This document shows positions 1,413-39,084 of a DNA stretch of 45,548 bases, piece by piece (the first letter of the stretch is position 1; each line of letters begins with the position of its first letter). The DNA comes from Prolixibacteraceae bacterium. GTDB taxonomy: Bacteria > Bacteroidota > Bacteroidia > Bacteroidales > Prolixibacteraceae. The translations under genes and the position numbers were made by a program. The stretch covers positions 1 through 45,548 of the forward strand of contig JAVHPO010000212.1 of assembly GCA_036170635.1 (NCBI GenBank). Direction: 5' to 3'. The notes beneath the pieces were generated by a model. That model did not search any database. It was not told where the DNA came from and worked only from the letters and a program-made list of their open reading frames with translations.

Positions 1413-3002
1413 ATGCAAGTAACGGTAACCAGAAAAAAACAGATTTTTTCTCCTGATTCTACACGGGTAATCGCCCGGTTTCTATATTTGGATGATGACC
1501 GGTCGGCGGATATAATCAGGAAGGTTTTGGCAATGCCCGAAGAGCAGGTGAAGATTGCCATGAGCCAGGTGCTGAGAGGTTACGCGCGTCGTCACAGAAA
1601 TATATCGCGCATATTTGAGAGGCATTTTGACAGACTTGCTCCCATCTTCGACAAGATTGAAGTCAATGAAGCGGATCTTAGTCCGGCGCAGAAAGCGTTG
1701 GTTGGTTCCTATTTTACCATGGAATATTCCATTGAATCTGCCGCTTTTTTTAATCCTTCCATTGTAGAACATCCCGATCAGTCTGAATTAAGATCAGATG
1801 AAAAAAGGGTGATTTTTAGTTTCCGGGCTACCGGCGAAGGGCATATCTCCTCAGTTGTCTTTCGATCAGGAATTCTTGACAGGCATAACAACCTCACCAT
1901 CGAACCTGTTGGTAAAATGCTGGCAGAAGCAGATAAAATTATACGAAATACATACCATAAAAAAAGTTTTAGGGAGAAACTGAATGAAATTCAAGATCAT
2001 AGCACGGTTATAGTTCCGCCAATACTGGCCGTAGATGAAATTCAGGTGCCTGAAGAAGTAATTTCTGCTGCTATATCAGATAAAAAAGAGGAGATGCAAG
2101 ACAAGGCCAAGGATGTTACACCAGATTTTATCCTTGATAAATTAGGTGAGACTTTTACTTATGGTGAATTGATGAAGAATCTTGGTATAGCCATCAAAGA
2201 TACTGCCATTACAGAAGAGCATATCAAAATAATCAATCAAATGATGTGGCTGGCTTCCTCTCATTATGAGATTCACTTTTCAATTGATTCAGCCATTTCC
2301 GAAAGGGTTATTTTCCCCATATCGGCAACCGAACAAAGGGGGATTGAGGATGCCAGGTTTGTTAAATTCATTGACGACAATGGAGAGGTAACTTATTTTG
2401 CTACTTATACTGCCTATGATGGAATATCCATTCTGCCCAAATTAATTAGTACCAAAGATTTCTACGATTTTAGGATTTTGCCAATTAATGGCGAGGTTGC
2501 CCAAAACAAGGGGATGGCGCTGTTTCCAAGGAGGATTAACGGGAAGTATGCCATGTTATGCAGAATAGACGGGGTAAATAATTATATTGCTTACTCGGAG
2601 AATATAAATATCTGGCGTACGGCCAAAGTTATTCAGAAACCCCAATTTCCCTGGGATCTTGTGCAAATTGGCAATTCCGGTTCTCCAATTGAGACCCCCG
2701 ATGGTTGGTTGGTTATTACGCATGCAGTCGGGTCTATGAGGGAATATACGCTTAGTGCATCCTTGTATGACCGCGAAAACCCCGAGATCTTAATCGGGAA
2801 GTTGAATGAACCGTTAATGGTCCCCAATGAAGAGGAAAGGGAAGGTTACGTGCCGAATGTAATCTATTCGTGCGGTTCTATGATTCACAATGAAGATCTG
2901 GTCATCCCGTATGCCATGTCGGATCACGCCTCCTCATACGCGACGGTTAATCTGAGGGAGTTACTGGATGTATTGAAGGCCACAGGCAACTCCGAAAAGT
3001 AG
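1413..3002 (+). CDS. GH130-like glycosidase/beta-mannoside phosphorylase-related protein with an unassigned N-terminal ~290-aa extension
   Basis: The C-terminal ~240 aa carry segments I associate with the PH1107-related/GH130 fold: GIEDARFVKF, YFATYTAYDG, MALFPRRINGKYAML, NSGSPIETPDGWLVITHAVG, YVPNVIYSCG. I recognise no family in the N-terminal half. Confidence 0.55.
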   Translation: MQVTVTRKKQIFSPDSTRVIARFLYLDDDRSADIIRKVLAMPEEQVKIAMSQVLRGYARRHRNISRIFERHFDRLAPIFDKIEVNEADLSPAQKALVGSYFTMEYSIESAAFFNPSIVEHPDQSELRSDEKRVIFSFRATGEGHISSVVFRSGILDRHNNLTIEPVGKMLAEADKIIRNTYHKKSFREKLNEIQDHSTVIVPPILAVDEIQVPEEVISAAISDKKEEMQDKAKDVTPDFILDKLGETFTYGELMKNLGIAIKDTAITEEHIKIINQMMWLASSHYEIHFSIDSAISERVIFPISATEQRGIEDARFVKFIDDNGEVTYFATYTAYDGISILPKLISTKDFYDFRILPINGEVAQNKGMALFPRRINGKYAMLCRIDGVNNYIAYSENINIWRTAKVIQKPQFPWDLVQIGNSGSPIETPDGWLVITHAVGSMREYTLSASLYDRENPEILIGKLNEPLMVPNEEEREGYVPNVIYSCGSMIHNEDLVIPYAMSDHASSYATVNLRELLDVLKATGNSEK

Positions 3003-3060: not shown

Positions 3061-3127
3061 TGTGTGAATGATGCAATTTTTTTATGCAATTGTGTAACGC
3101 ATTTAGATACTGGGTTCCTCATCTTTG
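3061..3127 (+). promoter_or_regulatory. Composite stress-type promoter, copy 2
   Basis: box1 TGTGTGAATGATGCAAT (3061-3077), box2 TGTGTAAC (3091-3098), -7-like CATCTTTG (3120-3127). ATG at 3154 is 27 nt after the octamer. Confidence 0.55.
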
Positions 3128-3348: not shown

Positions 3349-3415
3349 AGTGGGAATGATGTAACTCTTCATGTTAATTGTGTAACATTTATCCTCATCG
3401 TGAAGCTCACATTTG
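3349..3415 (+). promoter_or_regulatory. Composite stress-type promoter, copy 3
   Basis: box1 AGTGGGAATGATGTAAC (3349-3365), box2 TGTGTAAC (3379-3386), -7-like CACATTTG (3408-3415). ATG at 3455 is 40 nt after the octamer. It begins right at the csbD-like stop codon. Confidence 0.6.
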
Positions 3416-3454: not shown

Positions 3455-3733
3455 ATGAACACAGGAAAAGTATTATTAGGTGTATTGGCTGGAGTCGCTA
3501 CAGGCGCTTTGCTGGGAATTTTATTCGCTCCGGCCAAGGGTTCACGTACCCGAAGAAGAATCCTCAGGCAGGGTGAGAGCTATGTGGACGGTCTAAAAGA
3601 AAAGTTCAACGAATATGCTGACACCATCACCGAGAAACTGGAACATGCCAAGGAAGAAGTCTCTGCATTTGCTCAAAAGGGTAAGGAGAAATTTGAAGAG
3701 GCTGAAAAAGAGGTGAAAGCATCCAAGGTTTGA
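3455..3733 (+). CDS. YtxH domain-containing protein (92 aa)
   Basis: N-terminal helix GVLAGVATGALLGILFAPAKGSRTRRRI is the YtxH signature. It is followed by a charged Lys/Glu-rich helical tail. Confidence 0.7.
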   Translation: MNTGKVLLGVLAGVATGALLGILFAPAKGSRTRRRILRQGESYVDGLKEKFNEYADTITEKLEHAKEEVSAFAQKGKEKFEEAEKEVKASKV

Positions 3734-3790: not shown

Positions 3791-3876
3791 ATCCCTGTCA
3801 GGTTTTAGCCATTTGCTTGTCACCGATAGATTAAGCTTAGCAGAACGATTTCAATTCACGCCTGACAGGGATTTTT
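3791..3876 (+). other. Perfect 12-bp inverted repeat with 58-nt spacer, followed by T4 (possible large-loop terminator or structured RNA)
   Basis: ATCCCTGTCAGG (3791-3802) pairs with CCTGACAGGGAT (3861-3872), followed by TTTT (3873-3876). It lies between ytxH-like and the next gene. Confidence 0.35.
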
Positions 3877-3904
3877 GGAGCAATATCAATTAAATCATAT
3901 TATC

Positions 3905-4318
3905 ATGTGGAAAAAAATGTCGAATGACAATCTATTGTTTTACAAGAATACAAATTCGCTCAATCCATCTTTGTTACTTTTCGATTTCCCATCATTAATT
4001 GGAAAAATGAAACACAAACAGACCTGGGTTAAAGGGGATCTTGAAACCATGATTCTGTTGAAAATACCCGCCAAACAGATTGTACTTACCGCATTGCACG
4101 AAGGAACCGAGATAAAATCGTTCCAGTCAAACGAATCCATTACCTTTCAAGTAATAGAAGGGGAAATGAAGTTTCATAGCCGGAAAGGATCTGTGAATCT
4201 TGACAAAAGTCAATTGCTGACCCTCAGTGAAAATATAAATTATAGTCTGACCACGAATGTAGAGACGGTACTTCTTTTAACAATAACGAGCGGGTCAATA
4301 CAACTCTCAGAAAATTAA
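3905..4318 (+). CDS. Hypothetical protein, possibly cupin-fold
   Basis: The ORF-track TTG start at 3875 overlaps the T-run of the inverted repeat, so I use the first ATG at 3905 (3917 is an alternative). The beta-rich C-terminal half (ITFQVIEGEMKFHSRKGSVNLDKSQLLTL...TVLLLTI) resembles a cupin barrel, but I see no metal-binding His pattern. Confidence 0.35.
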   Translation: MWKKMSNDNLLFYKNTNSLNPSLLLFDFPSLIGKMKHKQTWVKGDLETMILLKIPAKQIVLTALHEGTEIKSFQSNESITFQVIEGEMKFHSRKGSVNLDKSQLLTLSENINYSLTTNVETVLLLTITSGSIQLSEN

Positions 4319-4326
4319 ATATACAC

Positions 4327-4698
4327 ATGTTTAATAATATTCTCCGCCCAAATGCCAGGGGAGGCACGATTGGGATGATTGAATCACTGTTTGAAAAAAC
4401 CGTGGATTATGGAAAAACAAGCTTTCTATTGGTGAAACTTAGAACGCTAAACAAGACTTCAGATGTTGTTTCCTCCCTCCTCGCCCACACGGTTGTCCTG
4501 ATTTTTGCTTTATCATTTATGCTTTTCCTGAGTTTGGGCTTAGCTATTTGGCTTGGCGAAATTTTTGGCAATACCTTTTATGGGTTCTTTGTGGTAGCGG
4601 CCTTTTACGGGTTGACAGGGATTTTTATCCATCTTTTCCTGCACAAATGGATCAAAAAGTTGGCAAGCGATCGCTTTATTGAACAAGTGCTTAAATAA
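4327..4698 (+). CDS. Membrane protein of the 'phage holin family / Holin-X-like' type commonly found next to ytxH
   Basis: 123 aa with two adjacent hydrophobic helices (VVLIFALSFMLFLSLGLAIWL, GFFVVAAFYGLTGIFIHLFL) after an amphipathic N-terminus. Sits 8 nt after the previous stop. Confidence 0.45.
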   Translation: MFNNILRPNARGGTIGMIESLFEKTVDYGKTSFLLVKLRTLNKTSDVVSSLLAHTVVLIFALSFMLFLSLGLAIWLGEIFGNTFYGFFVVAAFYGLTGIFIHLFLHKWIKKLASDRFIEQVLK

Positions 4699-4704
4699 AC
4701 TAAG

Positions 4705-5103
4705 ATGCAAAACAGATCTTCAACTGCAGTGTTAAAAGATACGATTCAACTATTGGAAACCGAACAGAAAATTGAAGGACGGCTTTTGAAAGAACAATTT
4801 TATTTGACCTATGAAAGCCTGAAACCAGTCAATCTTCTCCGAAGTTCAATAAGGGATGTCGCTTCGTCACCCTATTTGATTGATAACATCATAGGCACGG
4901 CAGTGGGTTTGGCTACAGGTTATCTGTCCAGAAAAATTGTGATAGGAACCTCGGGAAATATTATCAGAAAACTTTTTGGCTTTTTGTTTCAGTTGGGTGT
5001 TACAAATACGGTTGCGCAACACCCAGGATCCATAAAATCAATCGCTCAATATTTCTACCAACATTTTCTCCGTAAAAAAAGAGAAAAAGCTCAATTATTG
5101 TGA
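4705..5103 (+). CDS. Hypothetical protein (132 aa)
   Basis: Complete ORF 6 nt after the previous gene. Its stop overlaps the start of the next gene (GTGA). No family recognised. Confidence 0.4.
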   Translation: MQNRSSTAVLKDTIQLLETEQKIEGRLLKEQFYLTYESLKPVNLLRSSIRDVASSPYLIDNIIGTAVGLATGYLSRKIVIGTSGNIIRKLFGFLFQLGVTNTVAQHPGSIKSIAQYFYQHFLRKKREKAQLL

Positions 5104-6209
5104 TAAAGAGAGAATTACAATTACCATTTTATGCAAAGGCTTCCATCTTTTTTATCGGTTTGGTTGCCTTTGTTGCCATATTGTACATTGCTCAAGGAAT
5201 TATTGTCCCTTTTGTTTTCTCAGTCATTGTAGCCATCCTGCTTCATCCGGTTGTGAATTTTCTGATCCGGCTAAAAATCAATAGAATTATTGCCATTGTA
5301 ATAGCACTATTTCTAACTTCTTTGGTGCTTGCGGCATTTTTTTCACTTATTTTTTCACAAGTGACTCAGTTTAGTGAATCATGGCCAAAACTGGTCGACA
5401 AACTGACCGAAACGCTCAACCAAATTATTTCCGGACTAGCCGGCTATCTGGATATAAAACCTCAAATCATAAATGAGTGGCTTACCAAGTCCAAGGGAGA
5501 ATTTCTCCACTTCAGCAATGAAGCAATCGGGCAAACCATTCTTTCAGTGGGTCATGCTGTCATGCTTGTTTTTTTAATCCCTGTTTACATCTTTTTTATC
5601 TTGTTTTACCAGCCACTTCTAATGGAGTTTATTCACCGTCTCTTTACCTCAAGCGACCATCATCAGGTGAGCGAAATTGTTACCCAGATAAAAACTGTTA
5701 TTCAAAGATACCTGGTAGGTTTGGTGATAGAGGCTATTATGATAGCAGCGTTGGATACAGCCGCTCTCCTGATACTTGGAATTGATTATGCTATTCTGCT
5801 TGGTATTATCGGTGCATTACTCAATGTGATCCCCTATATCGGAGGTATTGTAGCTGTTGCGTTACCAATGATGATTGCACTTGCCACGAAATCTACTGCC
5901 TGGTATGCCTTTTATGTATTGGGTGGCTACTATTTCATTCAACTTATTGACAATCATTATATTGTTCCATTCATCGTCGCATCTAAAGTTAAAATAAATG
6001 CACTTTTCTCACTCATTGTGGTTTTTGTTGGGAATGCAATTTGGGGAATTCCCGGCATGCTCCTTTCCATACCTCTTTTGGCCATTGCAAAAGTAATATT
6101 CGACCATATTGAATCGGTAAAACCCTGGGGATTTTTATTGGGTGATACCATGCCTCCATTATTGACAATTGATCCAATAATAAAAAAATTAAAAAAATTG
6201 GTACCATGA
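5100..6209 (+). CDS. AI-2E family (PerM/YdiK-like) transporter
   Basis: 369 aa, about 8 hydrophobic helices, with the characteristic C-terminal block ...ALLNVIPYIGGIVAVALPMMIAL... and ...IWGIPGMLLSIPLLAI.... GTG start overlaps the upstream stop. Confidence 0.7.
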   Translation: MIKRELQLPFYAKASIFFIGLVAFVAILYIAQGIIVPFVFSVIVAILLHPVVNFLIRLKINRIIAIVIALFLTSLVLAAFFSLIFSQVTQFSESWPKLVDKLTETLNQIISGLAGYLDIKPQIINEWLTKSKGEFLHFSNEAIGQTILSVGHAVMLVFLIPVYIFFILFYQPLLMEFIHRLFTSSDHHQVSEIVTQIKTVIQRYLVGLVIEAIMIAALDTAALLILGIDYAILLGIIGALLNVIPYIGGIVAVALPMMIALATKSTAWYAFYVLGGYYFIQLIDNHYIVPFIVASKVKINALFSLIVVFVGNAIWGIPGMLLSIPLLAIAKVIFDHIESVKPWGFLLGDTMPPLLTIDPIIKKLKKLVP

Positions 6210-6233
6210 CCAATTTATTTTATAACAACAAAA

Positions 6234-8561
6234 ATGAAAAATGAAATAATTTCGGCTCTATCCGTTGATTCAATCCACACTTCCCAAGAGATCTTAGGAT
6301 TGGTTAATCACGGGACGATCCTTTTAAAAAGCAATGAAATTTGTTGGGAGTCAGCAAAGGAGTTTGCCGAAATATTGGTAGTAACCTCCTATCCTCCCCG
6401 GGAATGCGGCATTGCTACTTATTCTCAGGATCTGATCAGAGCCATTAACAACAAATTCAGCAATTCAATATCCATCAAGGTTTGTGCACTTGAATCCAAT
6501 GAAACAAATTACTCCTATCCCAGTGAAGTCAAATATATCCTTAAAACCTCACTGGCCGAAGAGTATGAAAAAATGGCGATTACAATCAATAAAAATGATC
6601 GTATCAAACTTATTCTCATTCAGCATGAGTTCGGATTCTATAAAAAGCAGGAAAACGCGTTTATGCAATTTCTATTTGAACTCTCTAAACCTGTTGTGAT
6701 CGCTTTTCATACCGTTTTGCCTCATCCTGATTTGGAATTACTCTCAAATATTAAACATATCTGCTCTGTATGTCAGTCAATTATAGTTATGACGCAATCC
6801 TCGGCTGATATTTTATTGAAGGAATACAATGTACCTTCTGAGAAGATCTCAGTGATTGCGCATGGTACACATCTGGTTCCTCATTTGAGCGAAAAGTTCT
6901 TGAAACAGAAGTATGGATTAACAAATAGAAAAGTTCTTACCACATTTGGTCTGCTGAGTTCAGGAAAAGGAATTGAAACCACACTGGCTGCTTTACCTGC
7001 GATTATCAAACAATGCCCTGAAGTTATGTTTATGATAATGGGTAAAACACATCCTGAGGTTGTTAAAACAGATGGAGAACAATACCGCGAAATGTTGGTG
7101 GAAACGGTAAACAAACTGGGAATTGAGGATCATGTACGTTTTATCAATAAATATCTGTCACTTACTGAATTGCTTGAATATCTACAACTTACAGACATAT
7201 ATCTCTTTACTGCAAATGATCCGAATCAGGCCGTAAGTGGCACCTTTGCCTATGCGATGAGTTGCGGTTGCCCCATCATTTCTACTCCCATTCCCCATGC
7301 CGTGGAAGTATTAACGACTGATACGGGTATAATTTTTGATTTTCGCGATTCCGGCCAGTTGGCAGCTGGTGTGAACCACTTACTTCAAAATGATTCTTTA
7401 CGAAAAAAACTCAGTGTCAATGTATTGCAAAAAATAATATCTACTGCCTGGGAAAATTCCGCAATTGAACATGCCTTGTTGTTGGGGAAAATTGCCGATG
7501 AAAAAATGGTACTACGGTACAATCTCCCGTCTATCAAGTTTGATCACCTCAACAATATGACTACCGATATCGGAATCATTCAATTTTCAAAAATCAACCA
7601 GCCAGATATTAATTCCGGATATACACTGGATGATAACGCCCGTGCACTGATTGCCTGTTGCATGTATTTCAAATTAACCGGTGATGAAAAAAGTGTGTTT
7701 TACATACAGAAATATCTGAATTTTGTTAAGTATTGCCAATTACCTTCCGGTGATTTCTTAAATTATGTCGACCAGGGGAGCCATTTTACTGACCAGAACA
7801 AAGCAGTAAATCTGGATGATTCCAACGGGAGGGCTATCTGGGCTTTGGGATACTTGATCTCATTGATTGATCTGCTTCCCACAAAAATAATACTTGAAGC
7901 TGACAGAATACTCGCTAAATCGCTCCTTACATTTGACAGGGTTCATTCTACGAGAGCAATGTCCTTTGCTATCAAGGGGGTGTATTATTATCACCACACC
8001 ATGAAATCGAGCGAAAATCTACTTCTGACCAAAACCTTAGCCAATCGGTTGGTACAGATGTACAAACACGAATCGACAAGAGAATGGGAATGGTTCGAGG
8101 GATATCTCACTTATGCCAACAGCATCTTACCGGAAGCTATGTTGTATGCATGGTTGTTGACTGGTGAAGAAAATTACAAGGAGATCGCAAATTCGTCCCT
8201 GGATTTTCTGCTCTCGCATACCTTCAATCAAAATGGAATCGAAGTAATTTCCAACAAAGAATGGTTTTTCAGGGGTGGGGAAACAGGGAAATTTGGTGAA
8301 CAACCTATTGATGTTGCCTATACTATCATGACATTAAGCAAATTCTACGATGTATTTGATAACGACAAAATGTATGAAAAAATGGTTACAGCATTCAATT
8401 GGTTTTTAGGGGAAAACCGTTTGCACCAAATTGTTTACAACCCCTGTACCGGAGGCTGCTATGATGGATTGGAAGAGAGGAATGTTAACCTCAATCAGGG
8501 TGCTGAATCAACGATTAGTTACCTGATGGCCAGATTAACCATTGAAAAGTATAATAAGTAA
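6234..8561 (+). CDS. Group 1 (GT4-type, GT-B fold) glycosyltransferase fused to a ~340-aa C-terminal domain of unknown function
   Basis: The N-terminal ~430 aa have the GT4 layout (ILVVTSYPPRECGIATYSQDL..., FGLLSSGKGIE, AVSGTFAYAMSCGCPIISTP). Residues ~440-775 are helix-rich (DDNARALIACCMY, SNGRAIWALGYL, YLTYANSILPEAMLYAW), reminiscent of an alpha/alpha-toroid glycoside-binding domain. Confidence 0.6.
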   Translation: MKNEIISALSVDSIHTSQEILGLVNHGTILLKSNEICWESAKEFAEILVVTSYPPRECGIATYSQDLIRAINNKFSNSISIKVCALESNETNYSYPSEVKYILKTSLAEEYEKMAITINKNDRIKLILIQHEFGFYKKQENAFMQFLFELSKPVVIAFHTVLPHPDLELLSNIKHICSVCQSIIVMTQSSADILLKEYNVPSEKISVIAHGTHLVPHLSEKFLKQKYGLTNRKVLTTFGLLSSGKGIETTLAALPAIIKQCPEVMFMIMGKTHPEVVKTDGEQYREMLVETVNKLGIEDHVRFINKYLSLTELLEYLQLTDIYLFTANDPNQAVSGTFAYAMSCGCPIISTPIPHAVEVLTTDTGIIFDFRDSGQLAAGVNHLLQNDSLRKKLSVNVLQKIISTAWENSAIEHALLLGKIADEKMVLRYNLPSIKFDHLNNMTTDIGIIQFSKINQPDINSGYTLDDNARALIACCMYFKLTGDEKSVFYIQKYLNFVKYCQLPSGDFLNYVDQGSHFTDQNKAVNLDDSNGRAIWALGYLISLIDLLPTKIILEADRILAKSLLTFDRVHSTRAMSFAIKGVYYYHHTMKSSENLLLTKTLANRLVQMYKHESTREWEWFEGYLTYANSILPEAMLYAWLLTGEENYKEIANSSLDFLLSHTFNQNGIEVISNKEWFFRGGETGKFGEQPIDVAYTIMTLSKFYDVFDNDKMYEKMVTAFNWFLGENRLHQIVYNPCTGGCYDGLEERNVNLNQGAESTISYLMARLTIEKYNK

Positions 8562-8593
8562 CAACCGGATCTGTTCAAATAAACTTATCTGCT

Positions 8594-9226
8594 TTGAAAA
8601 CTCTGAGAATAGATACAGAAAAAACAAAATCTGTGGCCCTCATCATAGCGCATCCTGATGATGAAACATTGTGGGCCGGAGGAACGATCCTTTCACATCC
8701 TGAGTGGAACTGGTTTATTGTTTGTCTTTGCCGTCGCAGCGACAAGGAACGGGCCTCCAAATATAGCAAGGTGGTTAAGATTCTTAAGGCCAAGGGGATT
8801 ATGGGTGACCTCGACGATGGTCCTCAGCAAATACCATTGGATGATAGTGAGGTGGAGAATAGTATCCTGGAGTTATTACCCCTGAAACATTATGATTTGC
8901 TGATTACCCACAATATTAACGGAGAATATACAAGGCACCTCAGGCATGAGGAGATAAGCAAAGCTGTGATAAAGCTTTGGCAGTCAGGCGAAATTGATGC
9001 TGATGAACTATGGACATTCGCTTACGAAGATGGCAACAAGGCCTATTTCCCAATTGCTGTCGAAAAGGCATCGGTTTTTAAGCAATTACCGCAAAACATC
9101 TGGAACAAAAAATACAACATTATTACAGAATCATACGGTTTTGATCAGAATAGCTGGGAAGCCAAAACAGTACCTCATGCTGAAGCATTCTGGCAATTCA
9201 CCAATCTGCTTCATGCTAAAAACTGA
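8594..9226 (+). CDS. PIG-L/LmbE-family N-acetylglucosaminyl deacetylase
   Basis: N-terminal signature VALIIAHPDDETLWAGGT (AHPDDE zinc-site motif) and a typical size of 210 aa. TTG start at 8594, with GTG at 8630 as an alternative. Confidence 0.7.
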   Translation: MKTLRIDTEKTKSVALIIAHPDDETLWAGGTILSHPEWNWFIVCLCRRSDKERASKYSKVVKILKAKGIMGDLDDGPQQIPLDDSEVENSILELLPLKHYDLLITHNINGEYTRHLRHEEISKAVIKLWQSGEIDADELWTFAYEDGNKAYFPIAVEKASVFKQLPQNIWNKKYNIITESYGFDQNSWEAKTVPHAEAFWQFTNLLHAKN

Positions 9227-9282
9227 GTTAGCAATTTGTAAATGAGACAATTCTAATTATCAATAACTAATTATTTTTTCAA

Positions 9283-9325
9283 TTTTCACATTTTCACATT
9301 TTCACATTTTCACATTTTCACATTT
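9283..9325. repeat. Octanucleotide tandem repeat (TTTTCACA)x5 plus partial unit
   Basis: Five perfect units at 9283-9322 followed by TTT, preceded by a degenerate unit TTTTTCAA (9275-9282). It ends 6 nt before the ATG of the next glycosyltransferase (9332). Confidence 0.95.
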
Positions 9326-9331
9326 ATTTTC

Positions 9332-10474
9332 ATGAAAGTATTAGTAATGTACGATTACCCTCCATCCCCCGGAGGGCTTGCAACTCAGGGAGACCTCTTA
9401 TACAAGGGTCTTCTGGGAATGGGCGTTGATGCCCGTGCAGTTCACTTCGAATCGGCTCAGGAAAAAGAGTGGTACTATCGCTGGTTTGAACCGGATGTTG
9501 TTATTGGAGTAGGATACTGGGGCCACACTCCGCAATTGGTGCTACATCCTCAGCGATACGGGATCCAGCCAGTCCCATGGTTGGTGGCAGATGGTTATAT
9601 CGCGAATTATCAGGAAGTTTTGAATACCCTTCCTTTGATTTTGGTTACATCAAACTGGGTCAAAGAGATGTATGTCCGCGATGGCATTCATGGTGATCGA
9701 ATTGAAGTGCTTCCCGTTGGATGTGATACAGATTCTTTCATCCCGTTTGAAAAAAATGATCCGAAAATTCTTGCCGTACGTGAAGCTTTAGGAATCTCAC
9801 CGGAACAACTGATGATTCTTACAGTTGGTGGTGATGCTGCATCCAAAGGTGCGCAGGAGGTAATGCAAGCCCTTGCTATTATTGATTCAAAAGCGCCTGA
9901 CTGGAAATATGTATGCAAAGTGTGGCCGCAACCCCGCACCAAAATTCAAAATCTTGCTGATTTACAAATGGCATCAGACCTTGGCATTGAAAAAAATGTC
10001 ACCTATGAGACCAACACGATCTCAAGGAATTTCATGCCATATTTGGTAGGTGCATGTGATATTTATGCTGCCCCTTCGCGGCTTGAAGGATTTGGTATGC
10101 CCCAGGTTGAAGCCGGGGCTTGCGGAAAGCCTGTCATAAGCATAAAGGCAATGGGAATGCTGGATACCTTAATTGACGGTGAAACAGCATTTTTGGCCAA
10201 TGTGGCACAGCGAATTGTTGTCAATGAGGTAACAATTGGAGGCGAGTCGGGATTTGAGGAAAAACACAAACTGATTTTTGAAGTTCCGCGAACCGTGGAT
10301 TACCGTGCCAATGTTCAGGATATAGCCAAATATTTATTGATTCTTATGAAAGACGCAAGTCTTCGTGACAAAATGGGGAAAGCAGGTCGGGAAAGAGTGG
10401 TAGCGAACTTTGACTACCGCATTGTGGCAAAACGATTTGTTCAGATCATCAACGAAAAATTGGGAATTTACTAA
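9332..10474 (+). CDS. Group 1 (GT4) glycosyltransferase
   Basis: 380 aa with the E-x7-E region of retaining GT4 enzymes (PSRLEGFGMPQVEAGACGKPVIS). N-terminus MKVLVMYDYPPSPGGLATQ. Confidence 0.7.
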   Translation: MKVLVMYDYPPSPGGLATQGDLLYKGLLGMGVDARAVHFESAQEKEWYYRWFEPDVVIGVGYWGHTPQLVLHPQRYGIQPVPWLVADGYIANYQEVLNTLPLILVTSNWVKEMYVRDGIHGDRIEVLPVGCDTDSFIPFEKNDPKILAVREALGISPEQLMILTVGGDAASKGAQEVMQALAIIDSKAPDWKYVCKVWPQPRTKIQNLADLQMASDLGIEKNVTYETNTISRNFMPYLVGACDIYAAPSRLEGFGMPQVEAGACGKPVISIKAMGMLDTLIDGETAFLANVAQRIVVNEVTIGGESGFEEKHKLIFEVPRTVDYRANVQDIAKYLLILMKDASLRDKMGKAGRERVVANFDYRIVAKRFVQIINEKLGIY

Positions 10475-10483
10475 TGTTGAAAT

Positions 10484-11680
10484 GTGAAAATGGAAAACTG
10501 GCAAGAGATTGAAGATGCTAAGAAAGCTGCGATTGAGGTGCTGCTGCACAATGCTCACGGACCCTACTCGGGACTCCCTCGTACTGCAGGATGGGGCTAT
10601 CCTGAACCATATACCAGGGATTTGATGTTTTCCATTCTTGGCATAGCCGTAACCGGAAATATAAAATTACTCGGAAGCATCAGAAAAGTGCTGGAAACAC
10701 TGGCAAAAAATCAAACACGCCATGGTCATATACCTTCGTTGGTTCATGATAAGGAAGACCGAGGATCCAGCGATACAACTCCATTATTTTTGATGGCAGT
10801 TGGCATTTATAGAAAAGTATCAGCTGAACCGGATTTTTTAACTGAAGCAGTTGACAAAGCGCTGATCTGGATGGAATACCAAAGTCCGTCTGACCGTTAC
10901 CTTGTTGCCCAGCAACCTACCAGCGACTGGCGCGATGAACAATGGGTAACAGGATATGGACTGTTTGTAAATACAATTGTATACAGCTACTTGCGTCTCT
11001 TGGGCAAGGACGAGCGAGCAGAGCATGTTCGATGTGAAATGGGCCGGTTTACCATCGTCGATGGTTCAGGTCACCACCATTTGCACGAAGGCCTCGTAGT
11101 GAAACATAAACCATATTTTGCTTTCTGGTCTTACAAAATTCATAGCAGTGAAAGGTTCGATCTTCTTGGTAATGCACTGGCTATTCTTTCCGGATTGGCA
11201 ACTCCTTCCAGAGCCAATGAGATGATTTCGTGGATCGAAGAGGAGTGCGAAGCCATGCGCCTTCGGGGAGAATTGTCAATTCATCTGCCACCAAATTTTT
11301 TCCCTTATATAAGACCTGAGGATGCCGAGTGGCTTCCAAGGTATTTGATATATAACAACCCGGGAGAGTACCACAACGGAGGCATTTGGCCATTTATTTG
11401 CGGGTTTTATGTGGCTGCCCTGGTTGCAGCCAAAAGGTTTAAACTGGCAAAAGAGAAACTCATTGAGCTTACTCATTTGGTAACATTGTCTAATTCAGGT
11501 GAACTCCAATTCGGTTTCAATGAGTGGATAAAAGCCCAAAACGGCATACCCATGGGCCAGGATTGGCAAACCTGGAGTGCGGCACTTTATCTTTATGCTG
11601 TTAAATGTGTGGAGCTAAATGAAACTCCATTTTTTGAAGAAATGCGCAATTACCACAAAGAATCAAAAAATCCGGATTGA
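10484..11680 (+). CDS. Amylo-alpha-1,6-glucosidase (GDE_C)/GH63-like (alpha/alpha)6 glycoside hydrolase
   Basis: GWGYPEPYTRDLMFSILG near the N-terminus and NGGIWPFICGFYVAAL near the C-terminus resemble GDE_C-type hydrolases. GTG start sits 9 nt after the previous stop (ATG at 10490 is an alternative). Confidence 0.55.
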   Translation: MKMENWQEIEDAKKAAIEVLLHNAHGPYSGLPRTAGWGYPEPYTRDLMFSILGIAVTGNIKLLGSIRKVLETLAKNQTRHGHIPSLVHDKEDRGSSDTTPLFLMAVGIYRKVSAEPDFLTEAVDKALIWMEYQSPSDRYLVAQQPTSDWRDEQWVTGYGLFVNTIVYSYLRLLGKDERAEHVRCEMGRFTIVDGSGHHHLHEGLVVKHKPYFAFWSYKIHSSERFDLLGNALAILSGLATPSRANEMISWIEEECEAMRLRGELSIHLPPNFFPYIRPEDAEWLPRYLIYNNPGEYHNGGIWPFICGFYVAALVAAKRFKLAKEKLIELTHLVTLSNSGELQFGFNEWIKAQNGIPMGQDWQTWSAALYLYAVKCVELNETPFFEEMRNYHKESKNPD

Positions 11681-11683
11681 TCC

Positions 11684-11750
11684 TGTGTGAATCATGTAAC
11701 TCTTTACCGGAATTGTGTAAAGCATTTCTGCCCATATAAACAGACCTTTG
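11684..11750 (+). promoter_or_regulatory. Composite stress-type promoter, copy 4
   Basis: box1 TGTGTGAATCATGTAAC (11684-11700), box2 TGTGTAAA (11714-11721), -7-like GACCTTTG (11743-11750). The next annotated gene starts 139 nt later (11889). A 29-codon sORF starts at 11788. Confidence 0.55.
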
Positions 11751-12805: not shown

Positions 12806-12876
12806 CGTATTAATAAATCTGAAATAGGGACAGATGCAATAGCAAGAATTAGTTGCAACACATCTTTCTAAATCCA

Positions 12877-14097
12877 ATGAAAAAAAATAACAATATGAAA
12901 AAATTTAGCTTAAGTTTAACAGTTTTGCTGATGTGCTCTTTATTCACTTTTGCTCAGGACAAAGTAAAGACCGAGCCTTACCCCAATTGGGAGGTCGGGG
13001 TAAGTTTGGGAGTAACAAATTTCGCCGGATCTACCAACATTGCCAAAGGCAAATCCTGGGAGCATTTTAACAATTATAAAAGTAACTTGAACCTTGGTTA
13101 CGGATTGTTTATCAGGAGAAATTTCACCAGCGTATTCGCGTTCGAGGGCGCTTACAACGGGACTACTCTAACAGGTACGCCAAAAGCAACAAATGTCGCT
13201 GGTAAGGCATTTAAAACCGGTATCAACGAGTTAGATCTGAATACTGTCTGGAACATGAACAATCTCTTTTCCAGGAACAAATTTGATCGAAAGGTATATT
13301 GGTATACCAAACTGGGTGTAGGTTGGACCCATGTGAACAACAAAGAATTTACCAACCCAACTGCAATGAAGCCTTGGAGAGAATTAACCATTCCTATCGG
13401 AACCGGTATAGCCTTTCGCTTGAGCGAAAATGTAAAGTTTCACATTGGAACACAGTGGAGTTGGGTCAATTCAAATCGATTGGATGGTGATAATCAGGGT
13501 GGAACCGGAACTGACTACCTGATTGCTCATATCCGCGAACAATATTTGTACACGCACGCTGGATTATCCTTCATTTTTGGCAGAAGAGTTGTGAAAGAAG
13601 TACCTGTTGTAGTTGTAGTCCCAGCGCCTCAACCGGAACCAAAAAAAGAACCAAAACCAGAACCAAAACCAGTTCCTGTGCCACCACAAGCTCCAGTAAT
13701 TATTTATGTTCAACCGGCCGTTGTTGGAAATGTTTACAACATTCTTTTCGGCTTTAATTTCGGATTTGACAAGTCCAATATTGATGGTAAATCATCTACA
13801 GAACTTGATCGTCTAATAAGGGATCTGGTCGATAATCCAACGGTTGATGTTGAAATTGCCGCTCATGCTGATTCACGAGGTTCGGCAGCCTACAACATGA
13901 AACTTTCTGAAAGACGCGGCCAATCATTAATGGATTATCTCGTGGGGAAAGGTATTGATGCTTCAAGAATTAAAGTAACTGCCTATGGCGAAACAATGTT
14001 AACAAACAGGTGTTCAGATGGAGTTAAATGCTCCGAAGCAGAACATGCGGCCAACCGCCGGGCAGTAGCTACCATTGTAGTTTGGAAGAAGAACTAA
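12877..14097 (+). CDS. OmpA-family outer membrane protein (N-terminal beta-barrel, Pro-rich linker, C-terminal OmpA/peptidoglycan-binding domain)
   Basis: The ORF-track TTG at 12853 is replaced by ATG 12877 (12895 also possible). Signal peptide ...LTVLLMCSLFTFAQ. Linker PAPQPEPKKEPKPEPKPVPVPPQAP is encoded partly by three 12-nt units (13636-13671). The C-terminal domain has ...AHADSRGSAAYNMKLSERRGQSLMDYL...NRRAV.... Confidence 0.8.
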   Translation: MKKNNNMKKFSLSLTVLLMCSLFTFAQDKVKTEPYPNWEVGVSLGVTNFAGSTNIAKGKSWEHFNNYKSNLNLGYGLFIRRNFTSVFAFEGAYNGTTLTGTPKATNVAGKAFKTGINELDLNTVWNMNNLFSRNKFDRKVYWYTKLGVGWTHVNNKEFTNPTAMKPWRELTIPIGTGIAFRLSENVKFHIGTQWSWVNSNRLDGDNQGGTGTDYLIAHIREQYLYTHAGLSFIFGRRVVKEVPVVVVVPAPQPEPKKEPKPEPKPVPVPPQAPVIIYVQPAVVGNVYNILFGFNFGFDKSNIDGKSSTELDRLIRDLVDNPTVDVEIAAHADSRGSAAYNMKLSERRGQSLMDYLVGKGIDASRIKVTAYGETMLTNRCSDGVKCSEAEHAANRRAVATIVVWKKN

Positions 14098-14135
14098 GAT
14101 GTTGATTTGATTACAGATCAAGCAAGCACACAAAA

Positions 14136-14170
14136 AGAGAGGTTGTCATTTTGACAGCCTCTCTTATTTA
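14136..14170. terminator. Bidirectional rho-independent terminator between convergent genes
   Basis: AGAGAGGTTGTCA-TTT-TGACAGCCTCTCT (13-bp stem with one G-U pair), flanked by an A-run upstream and a T-rich tail downstream. Confidence 0.75.
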
Positions 14171-14219
14171 TGGAACATGCCTCCGTTTGAAATCATTGTT
14201 CAGAGCAACAAACAGCCAC

Positions 14220-15353
14220 TTACTTCTCCTTTTGTATGGTAAGGCTGGATTTAATTCCGGATAAGATAGATTTGAAGCAATAATTAAAAAGAAATTTTTC
14301 AGGATCTCTCTCATTATAGATGATCCCCCTTCTTATTTCTTTTCCAGGTAATGGATTGGAGTTTAATATCTTAATATTGGCAATAAGAGAACCTAATCGC
14401 TCTTTCACTGCTGTATTATCATCCGTCCGTTTGTTTTTCAGTGTGACATCCAATCCATGGTAAAGTAGTGTCATTTTGCCTGTTGCTTTGGTATTATTTG
14501 CAGTAAAGCTGAAATTCATCGCGTCAATTTTACCGGTTGTTACATTGATAAAAGCATTTTTCTCAAGGATAGGGTTCAATTCACCGGCATCCATTTCCGA
14601 CAGACTACCATTCAAAGAAAATGTATTTTGCCGGTCAAAGAGTCTACCTTTTAATCGAATGGCCAATTTACCTTTTCCCATCAGTAAAGCGTTAACATTG
14701 AGCTTTAGATAGGCCTTCTCCCTTTTGTAAATAGTGTCGTTCGAAAGATTATAAATCTTAGCATTTACCTCAGTAAAACTAATTTGGCCCGCTGTGTTTG
14801 CCTCTTTGGCATGTTCTTTATAGGTAACACTACCGGCTAATAGAGATATGGAATCAATTTTAACATAACCGGGATAATTGTATATCATATTTTGAAATAC
14901 CTCCTTGTTCACATGTTTGAATTTTATTCGCTTGTCACTAAAAGCATTCAAATCCATTTCTCCGATTTCTATACCGGAGCTTTTCAGAATACCGGATTTT
15001 ATATACTTTGAAACGGAAAGTTTTTGAACAAGTAGCTTTTTAAAGTCTGCTTCAATTCTGTCTGTTTGATATGTGTTGCGAGAAGTGAAAGCGTATTCGT
15101 TGTAATTAGGGTGAATTGAAAAACTGTTGGCGGTAAGTGTTTTTGTTGTTTCGGAATATTTAATACGGCTGGCTTTAAAGCTGTACAAGCTGTCTGATGA
15201 AACAGAAAGAAGTTCGTCTGCTTCAAAATCAAAAGCATTGAGGATAGAAGGAGAAATGGTATCTAATTTTGCAACATGCAGTTTATACCCCATTAAAATA
15301 CCGTTTTTTATTCGATATGATTTTGCACTTAATTTATTGCCAAACGATCCCAA
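14220..15353 (-). CDS. Hypothetical beta-rich protein, last gene of the mla-like operon (possibly AsmA/DUF748-like)
   Basis: 377-aa ORF with a TTG start, 48 nt after the mlaD-like stop. No signal peptide or TM helix visible. It has repetitive amphipathic beta-strand segments (for example GSLSEMDAGELNPILEKNAFINVTTGKIDAMNFSFTANNTKATGKMTLLYHGLDVTL). Confidence 0.4.
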   Translation of the reverse strand: MGSFGNKLSAKSYRIKNGILMGYKLHVAKLDTISPSILNAFDFEADELLSVSSDSLYSFKASRIKYSETTKTLTANSFSIHPNYNEYAFTSRNTYQTDRIEADFKKLLVQKLSVSKYIKSGILKSSGIEIGEMDLNAFSDKRIKFKHVNKEVFQNMIYNYPGYVKIDSISLLAGSVTYKEHAKEANTAGQISFTEVNAKIYNLSNDTIYKREKAYLKLNVNALLMGKGKLAIRLKGRLFDRQNTFSLNGSLSEMDAGELNPILEKNAFINVTTGKIDAMNFSFTANNTKATGKMTLLYHGLDVTLKNKRTDDNTAVKERLGSLIANIKILNSNPLPGKEIRRGIIYNERDPEKFLFNYCFKSILSGIKSSLTIQKEK

Positions 15354-15401
15354 GAGAGATTTTTAGGATATTTTTTTTTGACATGGCGTTAAATTTTGTT
15401 G

Positions 15402-16379
15402 TTATTTGTTTATGGAATCGTTTAGGGCTTCTTTCGCTCTCTTCTTAAAAAATCCCCGAAGTAAGATATTGTGCTGAGCCGCTTCAAGATCTTCATCCAA
15501 TTTTTTAGAGCTGCTCTCCAAATTCTTAATAGTTTCTTTCAAACGGGCACCTGCTTCTTCATCATGTAGCAACACCCCAATTGTAGAATGAGGATTGCTT
15601 CCTGCCTTTTTAATATTTGTAACAAACAATGAGGCTGTGTCTGCCATTTGCCGGAGTTGCAAAACTGAGGCCTTTACCGAATTAAAAACCACAGTATCTG
15701 TTGTCAGTTCATTCACAAGGGTACCTTTTTTATTTAAGCCGGAGCTGAAGGCGACCAGAGAGCTAACCAATTGTTGCGCCTTTACTGATGCGATCTGAAG
15801 TGAAGCAGTGGCAGAATTGATGTTTACATAGATGGAACTGTCATTCAATAGTTTCCCCATGGTTCCTTCTCCGGATACCAACTTATGACTAAGGGTTTTG
15901 AAATCGGTAGTTATGGCGAGCAGGTTGGAATTGTTCTCCTGTAAGGTTTTAATCATATCCTCTGATGTAAAAGTCTTTTCCACTGCCAAAGTATCTCCAT
16001 CCTGCACAGAAGGCAATTTTTCAGTTCCACCGTAAATAACCAGTATTTTATTTCCTATCAATCCATCGCTGCTTATCTTGACCATGGCGTCTTTCGGGAT
16101 ATACTTCTGTGCTTTTCTCTCAATATTCATGGTGACTTCTACCTGAGATTTCCCAAAAAAATTAAGGTTGCTTACAGTTCCTATTTTTACCCCTGACAAC
16201 CAGACGTTGTTACCCCCTTGCAATCCTCCCACATCATCAAAGAGAGAATATACCTGCATTTTTCGGCTAAAGGTTTCCCTGAGGTCTCCAACAATAAGAA
16301 TTCCGGCCAAAAGAAAAGCCAATCCTATAAAAATAAAGAGACCCACTATAACTGCATGTTTATTAGGTGATTCATTCAT
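15402..16379 (-). CDS. mlaD: MlaD/MCE-family substrate-binding protein of an ABC lipid transporter
   Basis: N-terminal anchor AVIVGLFIFIGLAFLLAGILIVG followed by an MCE domain (DDVGGLQGGNNVWLSGVKIGTVSNLNF) and a helical C-terminal extension. Confidence 0.75.
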   Translation of the reverse strand: MNESPNKHAVIVGLFIFIGLAFLLAGILIVGDLRETFSRKMQVYSLFDDVGGLQGGNNVWLSGVKIGTVSNLNFFGKSQVEVTMNIERKAQKYIPKDAMVKISSDGLIGNKILVIYGGTEKLPSVQDGDTLAVEKTFTSEDMIKTLQENNSNLLAITTDFKTLSHKLVSGEGTMGKLLNDSSIYVNINSATASLQIASVKAQQLVSSLVAFSSGLNKKGTLVNELTTDTVVFNSVKASVLQLRQMADTASLFVTNIKKAGSNPHSTIGVLLHDEEAGARLKETIKNLESSSKKLDEDLEAAQHNILLRGFFKKRAKEALNDSINK

Positions 16380-16382
16380 GGT

Positions 16383-17180
16383 TTATTGTATAAAATTATA
16401 ATCGAAGAAAGCTTTTACCTGTTCGTCATTTGTATCGAATACCTCGTCGAAGGTTCCTACTTTTAAAAATTCACCTTCAATTAGCATGGCAATACGATTT
16501 GCTGAATTTTTTGCACAGGTGAGATCATGGGTAATAATGACTGAACTGGTGTTGTATTTTTGCTGAACTTCATTGATCAATTCAATGATTTCGGCACTTG
16601 TAATTGGATCAAGACCTGATGTTGGTTCATCGTACAGCATGATCTCAGGTTTAAGTATTAGTGTCCGTGCAATACCGATTCTTTTGCGCTGTCCGCCAGA
16701 AAGATCTGATGGCATTTGTTTCAGCTTATCTGTAAGACCCACAGCCTCCAATACCTCTTCAACGGCATCATCTACCTCCTTTTTGTTGATATTCTTCCTG
16801 TTCATGGTCAACGGAAAGGCCAAATTCTGGTAAACATTCATGCTGTCGTACAGTGCACTGTTTTGAAAAGAGAATCCAATGCGTATCCGCAGAGCATTCA
16901 GCTCCTTGCTCTCCAATTGATCAACATGTTGTCCAAGCACTACTACCTCTCCCCTATCCGGCTTAAGCAAGCCTACTATTATTTTTATTAAGACAGATTT
17001 TCCAGTCCCGGATTTGCCTAAAACAGCAACATTTTCGCCTTTGAAAAGATTAAAATTGATTCCTTTTAATACCTCCAGGTCACCAAACGATTTGAATAAT
17101 CCGCTGATTGAAATAACTGAATCTTCCTTGTCAATACTATGCTGCTTTAATTTTTTCATTGCAAATATTATCTCATCCAA
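16383..17180 (-). CDS. mlaF: ABC transporter ATP-binding protein (MlaF-like)
   Basis: Walker A GKSGTGKS, ABC signature LSGGQRKRIGIAR, Walker B IMLYDEPTSGLD. Overlaps the upstream permease gene by 13 nt. Confidence 0.85.
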   Translation of the reverse strand: MDEIIFAMKKLKQHSIDKEDSVISISGLFKSFGDLEVLKGINFNLFKGENVAVLGKSGTGKSVLIKIIVGLLKPDRGEVVVLGQHVDQLESKELNALRIRIGFSFQNSALYDSMNVYQNLAFPLTMNRKNINKKEVDDAVEEVLEAVGLTDKLKQMPSDLSGGQRKRIGIARTLILKPEIMLYDEPTSGLDPITSAEIIELINEVQQKYNTSSVIITHDLTCAKNSANRIAMLIEGEFLKVGTFDEVFDTNDEQVKAFFDYNFIQ

Positions 17181-17956
17181 TTGGAAATCTGAACAATAAT
17201 TACCTCTTCAATAAATATCAGGAACATGGCAAGCACAACCGCCTGATTTGCAGCTTTACCTACACCACGTGTTCCCTGAGTGGCATGATAGCCTTTGTAA
17301 CATCCCACAATGCCTATTGTAAATCCGTAAACTATGGTTTTGACCACAGATGTGGTGATATCAAGAAAGTTGATGGTTTTAAATGCACTTTGATAGAAAC
17401 TGATCATGCTGCTGGTTTCTTCGGCATGCACATTCAGGTATGAACCGTACAACGCCACGAAGCTGCAATACAATGCGAGTACAGGAATGGTCAAAGTGGT
17501 GGCTATAACACGTGTAACTACCAAATATTTAAAGGGATTGATGGCAGAAACCTCCATGGCATCAATTTGTTCTGTCACCCTCATTGAACCGAGTTCTGCT
17601 CCAATGCTTGATCCGACTTTACCGGCACAAATGAGTGCAGTAACCAACGGACCCAGCGCCTTGATGATTGCAATACCGATTAAAGAAGGGAGCCATGAGG
17701 TTGCCCCAAAATCTTCCAAAGATGGACGCGATTGCTTGGTGAAAACTATACCAACAATGAAACCTGTCAAAGAAATTAATGCCAGCGATTTTAAGCCCAC
17801 CTCGAAACACTGATTGATTACTTCACGCAGGTGAAAAGGCCTTTTAAATGCCTCCTTAAAAAAAAGGGCAGTAAATAGATAGGCCTTATGAATACCACTA
17901 AAATATTCATCAACGCCTTTCGAAAAGGTGTATTTGTTCCTCATTCTGTTAAACAT
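17168..17956 (-). CDS. mlaE: MlaE-family ABC transporter permease
   Basis: 262 aa, multi-pass. The layout and the segment ...GSMRVTEQIDAMEV... are typical of MlaE/YrbE permeases. First gene behind promoter copy 6. Confidence 0.8.
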   Translation of the reverse strand: MFNRMRNKYTFSKGVDEYFSGIHKAYLFTALFFKEAFKRPFHLREVINQCFEVGLKSLALISLTGFIVGIVFTKQSRPSLEDFGATSWLPSLIGIAIIKALGPLVTALICAGKVGSSIGAELGSMRVTEQIDAMEVSAINPFKYLVVTRVIATTLTIPVLALYCSFVALYGSYLNVHAEETSSMISFYQSAFKTINFLDITTSVVKTIVYGFTIGIVGCYKGYHATQGTRGVGKAANQAVVLAMFLIFIEEVIIVQISNWMR

Positions 17957-24118: not shown

Positions 24119-24152
24119 TCGTGTGATATTAAATAGATTGAAATAAGACAGC

Positions 24153-39081: not shown

Positions 39082-39084
39082 GCC

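Follow-up and report, generated by a model that had tools for sequence, protein, structure and literature searches.

We analysed a stretch of 45,548 nucleotides from a Prolixibacteraceae bacterium (contig JAVHPO010000212.1 of assembly GCA_036170635.1; hereafter the window) and focus here on a group of carbohydrate-active genes at 6234-11680. These genes are the last four in an array of eight tightly packed open reading frames (ORFs) on the plus strand (3875-11680), which are separated by 8, 6, -4, 24, 32, 105 and 9 nt. Based on the ORF table, the first of the four (6234-8561, + strand) encodes a protein of 775 aa in which a GT4 glycosyltransferase domain is fused to an (alpha/alpha)6 barrel. 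It is followed by a divergent PIG-L/LmbE protein of 210 aa (8594-9226, +), a putative metal-dependent de-N-acetylase of the CE14 type by Pfam and motifs, and by a canonical GT4 glycosyltransferase of 380 aa (9332-10474, +) with a Pfam match and an intact EX7E motif (E254, E262). The last gene encodes a GH100/GDE_C-like (alpha/alpha)6 glycoside hydrolase of 398 aa (10484-11680, +), assigned from Pfam and from invertase matches among Protein Data Bank (PDB) entries. Further upstream lies a gene for a long GH130 protein of 529 aa (1413-3002, +), predicted to be a beta-mannoside phosphorylase of the beta-1,2 type (Pfam 2.8e-28, residues 296-522).

A previous sequence-only reading of the window had listed the four ORFs with gaps of 32, 105 and 9 nt, and of 24 nt after the AI-2E permease gene before them, and the ORF table matches these figures exactly. 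Its domain calls (two GT4s, PIG-L, a GDE_C-type hydrolase and GH130) are likewise correct by Pfam. The genes are real, since orthologues of the fusion, of the 380-aa GT4 and of the hydrolase are found at 57-96% identity across many Bacteroidota in conserved synteny. No record turned up when the exact sequence of the fusion protein was looked up, and full-text literature searches returned no description of the gene combination or of a GT4 fusion devoid of EX7E.

The four genes had been taken as one unit, with the GH130 gene as a side remark. Gene neighbourhoods change both points: they separate a module made of the fusion and GH130 from an optional trio of PIG-L, GT4 and GH100-like genes, and they make GH130 the partner of the fused GT4. 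An exact pattern, run against the 185,579 GTDB genomes that each represent one species, gave at least 595 relatives. Of the 80 loci listed, almost all are titled Bacteroidota (Bacteroidales, Chitinophagales, Saprospirales, Flavobacteriales, Cytophagales and Sphingobacteriales), with Alkaliflexus imshenetskii DSM 15055 and Flavobacterium sp. ZT3R25 as cultured carriers among them. Orthologues of the fusion are 57-94% identical to it, while the closest relatives of the hydrolase come from metagenome-assembled genomes of Prolixibacteraceae and other Bacteroidota (85-96% identity). The neighbours of the fusion gene were tabulated in 82 loci by tblastn and ORF clustering. Where 1.3 kb or more of upstream sequence is available (72 Bacteroidota loci), 60 loci have a GH130 gene near the fusion, nearly always as a short form (~347 aa) on the same strand and immediately upstream. 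The window's lineage and about nine others instead carry the long form (~529 aa) 2.5-5 kb upstream, with CsbD and YtxH genes between.

The same pairing extends well beyond the Bacteroidota orthologues. Distant fused homologues, with barrels ~34-41% identical to that of the window, were drawn from 1.84 billion representatives and then used against metagenome contigs, and GH130 lies nearby in 49 of 73 such loci. As the GC content of these contigs ranges from 0.27 to 0.71, their hosts are probably phylogenetically diverse. GH130 is usually downstream of the fusion in the high-GC group and is sometimes of the long type; beside one homologue (P0389, barrel 34% identical to the window's) it is divergently transcribed. 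In a few loci the GT4 and the barrel are separate neighbouring ORFs. Just two further partners recur, namely a second small GT4 (10 loci) and a B12-binding radical-SAM enzyme (5 loci). Thus GH130 is the real partner of the fusion by neighbourhood counts, and the pairing is kept down to ~30% identity. The radical-SAM enzyme (DUF4070, of the PhpK/HpnR-like methyltransferase type) adjoins the fusion in all five, at 12549-13916 of L002, 5113-6606 of L167, 7520-8881 of L029, 940-2277 of L163 and 6-1052 of L112, two of these loci being distant ones. This neighbour hints that the product is methylated in some lineages.

The PIG-L and 380-aa GT4 genes, together with the GH100-like gene where the contig permits, are present in 10 of the 48 loci with at least 4.5 kb of downstream sequence, and always as a block. 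The locus of Alkaliflexus imshenetskii (L057), for instance, has the first module but no trio over the next 10 kb downstream. Accordingly, the trio is an add-on, found only on Bacteroidota-like contigs in the loci sampled. In four of the five loci anchored on the hydrolase, the window included, the fusion is located just upstream. Two loci (L084 and L168) have compact operons in the order AI-2E, GH130, fusion, PIG-L, GT4 and GH100, with overlapping stop and start codons. In another (L083) the trio occurs without the fusion and adjoins an alpha-glucan phosphorylase gene. In the orthologues of loci L001-L062, conservation is unusually high for the 380-aa GT4 (69-90% identity) and for the hydrolase (66-83%), above the level of the flanking genes, which could reflect strong constraint or a recent lateral spread of the trio.

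The N-terminal part of the fusion (6234-7505, +) is a GT-B/GT4 domain covering residues ~45-420, as indicated by Pfam, Foldseek and motif analysis. Glycos_transf_1 matches residues 222-396 (8.3e-18; 65.0 bits compared to a cut-off of 26.4), and Foldseek matches the domain to MshA, SPS, BshA and PimB'. Both GT4s of the operon had been called retaining-type transferases. Both do match Glycos_transf_1, but the domain in the fusion is without EX7E: at the positions aligned to E254 and E262 of the 380-aa GT4, it has Q332-x7-Y340 (7227-7253). These two residues are invariant in 26 of 26 close orthologues, and the 26 distant fused homologues have Q in 24 cases, Y in 22 and a first-position Glu in none. 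In addition, all 26 close orthologues carry Leu, five residues before a conserved Lys, where other GT4s carry the pyrophosphate-binding Arg. The two GT4s of the operon are not close paralogues according to their alignment.

In characterised GT4s the EX7E glutamates bind the donor sugar and the nucleotide ribose (PMC8760489). Because the motif is missing, the GT4 of the fusion is maybe no ordinary nucleotide-sugar transferase. The GT4 family includes retaining phosphorylases that use sugar-1-phosphate (PMC8950772), and we infer that the domain uses such a substrate or differs in another way from an ordinary Leloir transferase. The retaining trehalose phosphorylases, GT4s that work on sugar-1-phosphate, offer a precedent for an EX7E-less GT4 that would take up the mannose-1-phosphate of GH130; these enzymes are fungal.

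The C-terminal part of the fusion (7506-8561, +) has no Pfam match at residues ~425-775, even at E <= 10. We assign it to a YPO2471-like family of (alpha/alpha)6 barrels by model, Foldseek and conserved residues. The barrel was modelled from a diverse alignment of 40 sequences with a pLDDT of 95.5, and this model replaced an AlphaFold model of the whole fusion that was based on a shallow alignment (pLDDT 62.8). Its top Foldseek match is 7tem, the uncharacterised YPO2471 protein of Yersinia pestis (E 5.6e-15, TM 0.82), and the homology is also visible by sequence (1.6e-12). The two share the fold, and here the barrel is fused to a GT4. Full-text literature searches found no paper on 7tem/YPO2471 or its family. 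The family comprises 3093 representative clusters at E <= 1e-3 (50% identity), with fused members of ~750 aa and free-standing members of ~350 aa. After 7tem, Foldseek ranks members of the AGE superfamily (cellobiose 2-epimerase, mannose isomerase and YihS; ~1e-7, TM ~0.7), followed by GH9 and GH76.

In the catabolism of mannan, AGE enzymes are known to work together with GH130, and they depend on a pair of catalytic histidines. The barrel has the same (alpha/alpha)6 fold, but its conserved residues are Asp, Glu and Arg: D466, D467, N468, R470, D529, R533, R574, E622, D744 and E758 are near-invariant in 40 homologues, several of them close to helix starts in the model, and no His is invariant or near-invariant among the 40. 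The barrel is therefore unlikely to be an AGE-type epimerase, and membership in the AGE superfamily was rejected for the missing conserved His and the lack of a Pfam match, in spite of the shared fold. A profile-profile comparison of the barrel with the GH100-like protein detected no relationship (probability 0.6%).

The GH130 gene had been placed upstream behind the first copy of a promoter-like motif, and we confirm it at 1413-3002 with the motif copy at 795-836. Two small hydrophobic ORFs (~61 and ~64 aa) at 885-1275 lie between them, and GH130 is thus the third gene behind this copy; in L001 and L002, GH130 likewise comes after small genes of this kind (DUF5670 and others). Both forms are closest to beta-1,2-oligomannan and beta-1,2-mannobiose phosphorylases: the catalytic part of the long form has the 1,2-beta-oligomannan phosphorylase 9fj8 as best PDB match (5.6e-31), and the short form matches at 8e-41. 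GH130 hydrolases have Glu in place of the basic residues that bind phosphate, and beta-1,2 specificity is indicated by a conserved Lys (PMC4599007). In the window's protein, the Asp of EDAR, the Lys of NKG, the Arg of LCR and the His of THA line up with residues of 9fj8, 7fip and 5b0p that are identical or likewise basic; their assignment to published positions is our own mapping. The corresponding motifs of both forms (Asp in EDAR/EDPR, Arg in LCR/LHR, His in THA/YHG and Lys in NKG/DKN) coincide with those of characterised enzymes, so that, by this mapping, the long and the short forms both have a phosphorylase's catalytic Asp and its three basic residues for phosphate binding. Both score below the NCBIfam equivalog cut-offs (134-180 bits compared to 450-550), and linkage and acceptor accordingly stay predictions.

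The N-terminal extension of the long form (residues ~1-290, window 1413-2280) has no Pfam match at E <= 10. Long forms 40-61% identical to the window's also lie beside distant fusion homologues (L121, L139, L144, L150, L158, L161, L163 and L164). Among known systems, both GH130 types come closest in sequence to the cytoplasmic Thermoanaerobacter Teth514_1788/1789 and Listeria Lin0857 proteins. The Thermoanaerobacter GH130 cluster also has an adjacent GT4 gene. The identity to these proteins is low, and they differ from the window's enzyme, which has ~290 extra N-terminal residues, is partnered by a fused EX7E-less GT4 and barrel, and sits with a stress regulon rather than in a sugar-uptake cluster. 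Other near parallels in print are fusions of GH130 with GT81, which CAZy lists, and a note that all soil Nitrososphaera genomes encode intracellular CE4, GH130 and GH133 enzymes.

Within the optional trio, the PIG-L call and its AHPDDE motif hold: the protein has a Pfam match at 1.9e-07 (PF02585, 32.1 bits compared to a cut-off of 28.2), and AHPDDE, GDLDDG and H-x2-H (HLRH) are invariant in 17 orthologues, which gives it the metal motifs of the family. No NCBIfam model matches it, the BshB and MshB models included, and sequence and profile searches of the PDB brought up no significant match; within the family, MshB came nearest at E ~1.6. The 380-aa GT4 matches Glycos_transf_1 at 2.2e-20 (73.4 bits, cut-off 26.4). 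Its best structural relatives, all weakly similar, are MshA, SPS, TreT and GlgM, which act on soluble acceptors or alpha-glucans.

The hydrolase had been described as GDE_C/GH63-like. It does match GDE_C (1.5e-09), but it is nearer to GH100 (3.2e-11) than to GH63. The match to PF12899 (Glyco_hydro_100; 43 bits compared to 23.6) covers only model positions 287-431 of 435 and leaves the N-terminal Asp unaligned. Neutral invertases of Anabaena and Arabidopsis in the PDB match at 1.6e-07 to 1.7e-05 over the C-terminal half, with YHNGGIWP and E347 aligned. Like these GH100 invertases (Anabaena InvA/InvB and Arabidopsis CINV1), which share the YHNGG-WP motif and the Glu at E347 in their C-terminal half, the protein appears to be a cytoplasmic (alpha/alpha)6 hydrolase of small sugars. 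It differs from them in its low scores (27-34 bits) and its shorter length (398 aa compared to ~460).

The window belongs to a stress island, as had been proposed. CsbD, YtxH, Usp, Dps, superoxide dismutase (SOD) and P-type ATPase genes are all present, together with a CbpA/CbpM pair, an old-yellow-enzyme homologue, a bestrophin-like protein, a phosphoketolase, a transaldolase, a class I aldolase and a type III polyketide synthase (PKS) with an ICMT-type methyltransferase. Many of these genes share a promoter/operator-like motif, TGTGAATnATGTAAC-N14-TGTAAC(A), of which the window has ~14 copies (17 matches at <=2 mismatches compared to 0.8 expected). Copies are found at 795, 3063, 3351, 11686, 12741, 18029 (minus strand), 18147, 19212, 22837, 27987, 28808, 30344 and 35177, and they lie upstream of GH130, CsbD, YtxH, DUF3108, OmpA, the Mla operon, Usp-region ORFs, transaldolase, the bestrophin-like gene, Dps and SOD. 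Copy 1 (TGTGAATGATGTAAC-N-TGTAAC, 795-836, +; 0 expected in shuffles) precedes the two small membrane ORFs and GH130. From the motif scan, further plus-strand copies precede a CsbD-like small ORF (3063-3104) and the YtxH-like gene at 3455-3733 (3351-3392), and another lies just 3' of the operon, before the DUF3108 gene (11686-11727). Conservation of the motif extends to 41 related Bacteroidota loci, and it stands immediately before GH130 in L063 and before the fusion in L038. Co-regulation of the eight-gene array with this regulon is likely in the window.

A hydropathy scan found no membrane-like or signal-like segment in the five enzymes. The claimed lack of a flippase, polymerase, lipid-carrier transferase and cysteine ligase is upheld: no Wzx, Wzy, WecA-type or BshC/MshC-like protein was found among the window ORFs scanned, 12853-17956 being outside the scan. 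Within that interval, 14220-17956 was identified from orthologue annotation in L001, and 12853-14097 reads as OmpA-like from its sequence. Nor did the scanned window ORFs show the machinery of a known exopolysaccharide or lipopolysaccharide (LPS) pathway, and we rejected an exopolysaccharide, LPS or capsule locus, as no exporter, polymerase or initiating transferase is present among these ORFs. A mannan polysaccharide utilisation locus was likewise rejected (no SusC/D, mannanase, ABC or PTS importer in the window or the conserved neighbourhood). An anti-phage defence system was rejected too: PADLOC gave 0 matches for six proteins, alongside a weak PF20706 match (GT4-conflict).

Taken together, our best explanation, which we favour tentatively and at slightly below even confidence, is a cytoplasmic, phosphate-coupled system that would make and remobilise a soluble mannose-containing, probably hexosamine-containing, glycoside or oligosaccharide under stress. 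The region would form the distal part of an eight-gene operon in a general-stress island of Bacteroidota (Prolixibacteraceae-like), and the system would build and remobilise a soluble sugar compound while the stress regulon is on. In the first module, GH130 would turn a beta-(1,2)-mannoside into alpha-mannose-1-phosphate and back. The alpha-linked acceptor or primer would come from the GT4 domain of the fusion, which would use a nucleotide sugar or, possibly, a sugar-1-phosphate directly, and the barrel may trim, isomerise or bind the product. In the second, the 380-aa GT4 would put N-acetylglucosamine (GlcNAc) on an acceptor and PIG-L would de-N-acetylate it, by analogy with BshA/BshB, MshA/MshB and PIG-A/PIG-L, and the GH100-like hydrolase would degrade the glycoside once the stress ends. 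The co-operonic AI-2E permease may carry the product or a precursor across the membrane.

Several points weigh against this account. Each catalytic step is assigned from family membership, with donor, acceptor and product all putative, and the barrel is without a characterised relative. The GT4 domain of the fusion, which has neither EX7E nor the canonical Arg, could be non-catalytic. The PIG-L protein is barely over its Pfam cut-off, the GH100 similarity is confined to the C-terminal third of the model, and the cytoplasmic location stands on a simple hydropathy test. In addition, the eight-gene array of the window has no motif copy immediately in front of it: the closest one precedes YtxH, with a terminator-like hairpin between. 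Finally, Mla, DUF748/TamB and OmpA genes are frequent neighbours, which would fit a role in the envelope too.

A bolder proposal, which we regard as unlikely, is that the first module is a widespread bacterial counterpart of the mannogen of Leishmania, that is, a nucleotide-independent phosphorylase relay serving as a carbohydrate buffer in stress or dormancy, with a glucosamine (GlcN)-glycoside branch in Bacteroidota. In such a relay, the inverting GH130 would swap mannose between a beta-mannoside pool and mannose-1-phosphate, and the GT4, devoid of EX7E, acting like a phosphorylase and joined to a new (alpha/alpha)6 enzyme domain, would bring mannose-1-phosphate into an alpha-linked glycoside. 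In Bacteroidota the relay would be wired to the general-stress regulon and extended by PIG-L, GT4 and the GH100-like enzyme. Mannogen, a reserve of beta-1,2-mannan in the cytoplasm, is the product of enzymes whose active sites resemble those of GH130, and it buffers metabolism in stress and quiescence (PMC10913872). In concept, the first module could run a cycle like this one, in which GT108 mannosyltransferase/phosphorylases make and phosphorolyse the reserve; these enzymes are GT108 and not GH130, they have no fusion of GT4 and barrel, and the likeness is an analogy only.

The envelope offers a different destination for the product. Under stress, the transferases might build a glycolipid or another membrane glycoconjugate, for example a GlcN-lipid that GT4 and PIG-L would make by a route like steps one and two of glycosylphosphatidylinositol (GPI) synthesis and that would then be mannosylated, which we consider somewhat unlikely. 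The GT4 and PIG-L pair is the established PIG-A/PIG-L pairing, and both GT4s weakly match models of PimA/PimB' and of GlcN-phosphatidylglycerol and monoglucosyl-diacylglycerol synthases, although all of these lipid-transferase scores are far under their cut-offs. Around the operon, in the window as in ~15 other loci, are MlaD/E/F, DUF748/TamB-like, OmpA and DUF3108 genes, but Mla neighbours are missing from most loci and from the distant clade. The window also has the type III PKS and ICMT lipid pair, and the AI-2E membrane protein is in the same operon. However, the enzymes themselves are without membrane segments, a GH130 phosphorylase together with a GH100-like hydrolase typically points to soluble sugars, and a WecA-like gene lies beside GH130 in just 1 of 168 loci.

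A narrower alternative, in our judgement quite unlikely, separates the trio from the rest: the 380-aa GT4 as synthase and the GH100-like enzyme as hydrolase would run a disaccharide cycle of the sucrose or trehalose type, with PIG-L unrelated or regulatory and the first module independent. It draws on the neutral/alkaline invertases as the only solved relatives of the hydrolase, on the SPS-, TreT- and GlgM-type structures matched by the GT4, and on the trio that stands beside alpha-glucan phosphorylase with no fusion. Against it, the SPS and TreT models score 20-36 bits compared to cut-offs of 576-775, PIG-L is invariably in the trio with its metal-binding motifs conserved, and the position of the fusion just upstream in 4/5 hydrolase-anchored loci, two of them with overlapping genes, argues for a link between the modules.

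We give only a slim chance to catabolism, that is, the salvage of imported beta-mannosides from plant or fungal mannan or N-glycan fragments. It is the usual role of GH130, characterised members of which are mostly catabolic, and the Thermoanaerobacter GH130 genes lie in a salvage cluster beside a GT4 and a GDP-mannose gene (PMC4264767). AGE-fold epimerases pair with GH130 in mannan catabolism, judging by references cited in PMC7660257; the barrel has no invariant His, unlike AGE enzymes. The absence of SusC/D, mannanase and ABC/PTS sugar importer genes from the window and the conserved neighbourhood, the presence of two glycosyltransferases, and a neighbourhood that is a stress regulon and not a polysaccharide utilisation locus all speak against it.

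A low-molecular-weight thiol pathway like that of bacillithiol or mycothiol, with its ligase encoded elsewhere, is most improbable and was rejected: it accounts for the GT4 and PIG-L chemistry and for MshA and BshA among the best structural matches of both GT4s, yet the equivalog cut-offs are far from reached (BshA, TIGR03999, 30.4 and 39.9 bits compared to 273.7; MshA, TIGR03449, 47.2 and 63.0 compared to 462.5), no BshB/MshB model matches, BshC/MshC was not found among the window ORFs scanned, and GH130, the barrel and the GH100-like hydrolase are left unexplained. The sequence-only reading had compared the pair to these thiol pathways. With the scores this far under the cut-offs (274-463 bits), what stands of that comparison is a chemical analogy: in BshA/BshB, MshA/MshB and the PIG-A/PIG-L pair of GPI synthesis, as here, a retaining GT4 is followed by a deacetylase of the PIG-L/LmbE fold, and MshA and BshA are top structural neighbours of the GT4s. 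The window differs from the thiol systems in its very divergent PIG-L, in having no ligase found in the window and in having a dedicated hydrolase instead.

If the favoured account of a soluble, phosphate-coupled glycoside system is true, many environmental bacteria hold an unrecognised cytoplasmic carbohydrate system tied to stress survival, built from parts that all belong to known enzyme classes. It would give a function to the YPO2471-like barrel family, to the EX7E-less GT4 lineage and to the long form of GH130. The enzymes could serve to make beta-mannosides without nucleotide sugars, and the shared motif is a handle on the little-studied general-stress regulon of Bacteroidota.

The remaining genes of the array lie upstream of the fusion. 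The AI-2E family transporter (5100-6209, +; 369 aa, Pfam 1.3e-54) has ~10 hydrophobic segments and overlaps the preceding ORF by 4 nt; a gene of this family is upstream of the fusion in 31 of 81 loci. Before it are three small conserved ORFs of 147, 123 and 132 aa (3875-5103, +), with orthologues in the same upstream block of many loci, and the middle one (123 aa) has three membrane-like segments and a weak holin-X-like match. A possible terminator or attenuator at 3791-3877 (+) consists of a 13-bp stem, a ~55-nt loop and a UUUUU run after the stem (z = -2.4). This hairpin sits between YtxH and the eight-gene array and overlaps the annotated TTG start of the 147-aa ORF, the true start of which is probably a downstream ATG. 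A sigma-70 and terminator scan of the window gave 44 promoter-like sites compared to 33.5 expected.

Elsewhere in the island, transaldolase, XFP phosphoketolase and class I fructose-bisphosphate aldolase genes lie at 23006-27887, where GC is the richest of the window (0.44-0.46 compared to ~0.39), and the motif copy at 22837, ahead of the transaldolase gene, is degenerate (2 mismatches). The type III PKS gene and then the ICMT-family methyltransferase gene are located at 31020-32576; such pairs make alkylresorcinol and alkylpyrone lipids in Azotobacter cysts. Finally, envelope and chaperone members of the island follow each other at 38182-39387: a CbpA-like DnaJ, then a MerR_2 (CbpM-like) protein, then a TamB/DUF748 protein of 1661 aa.

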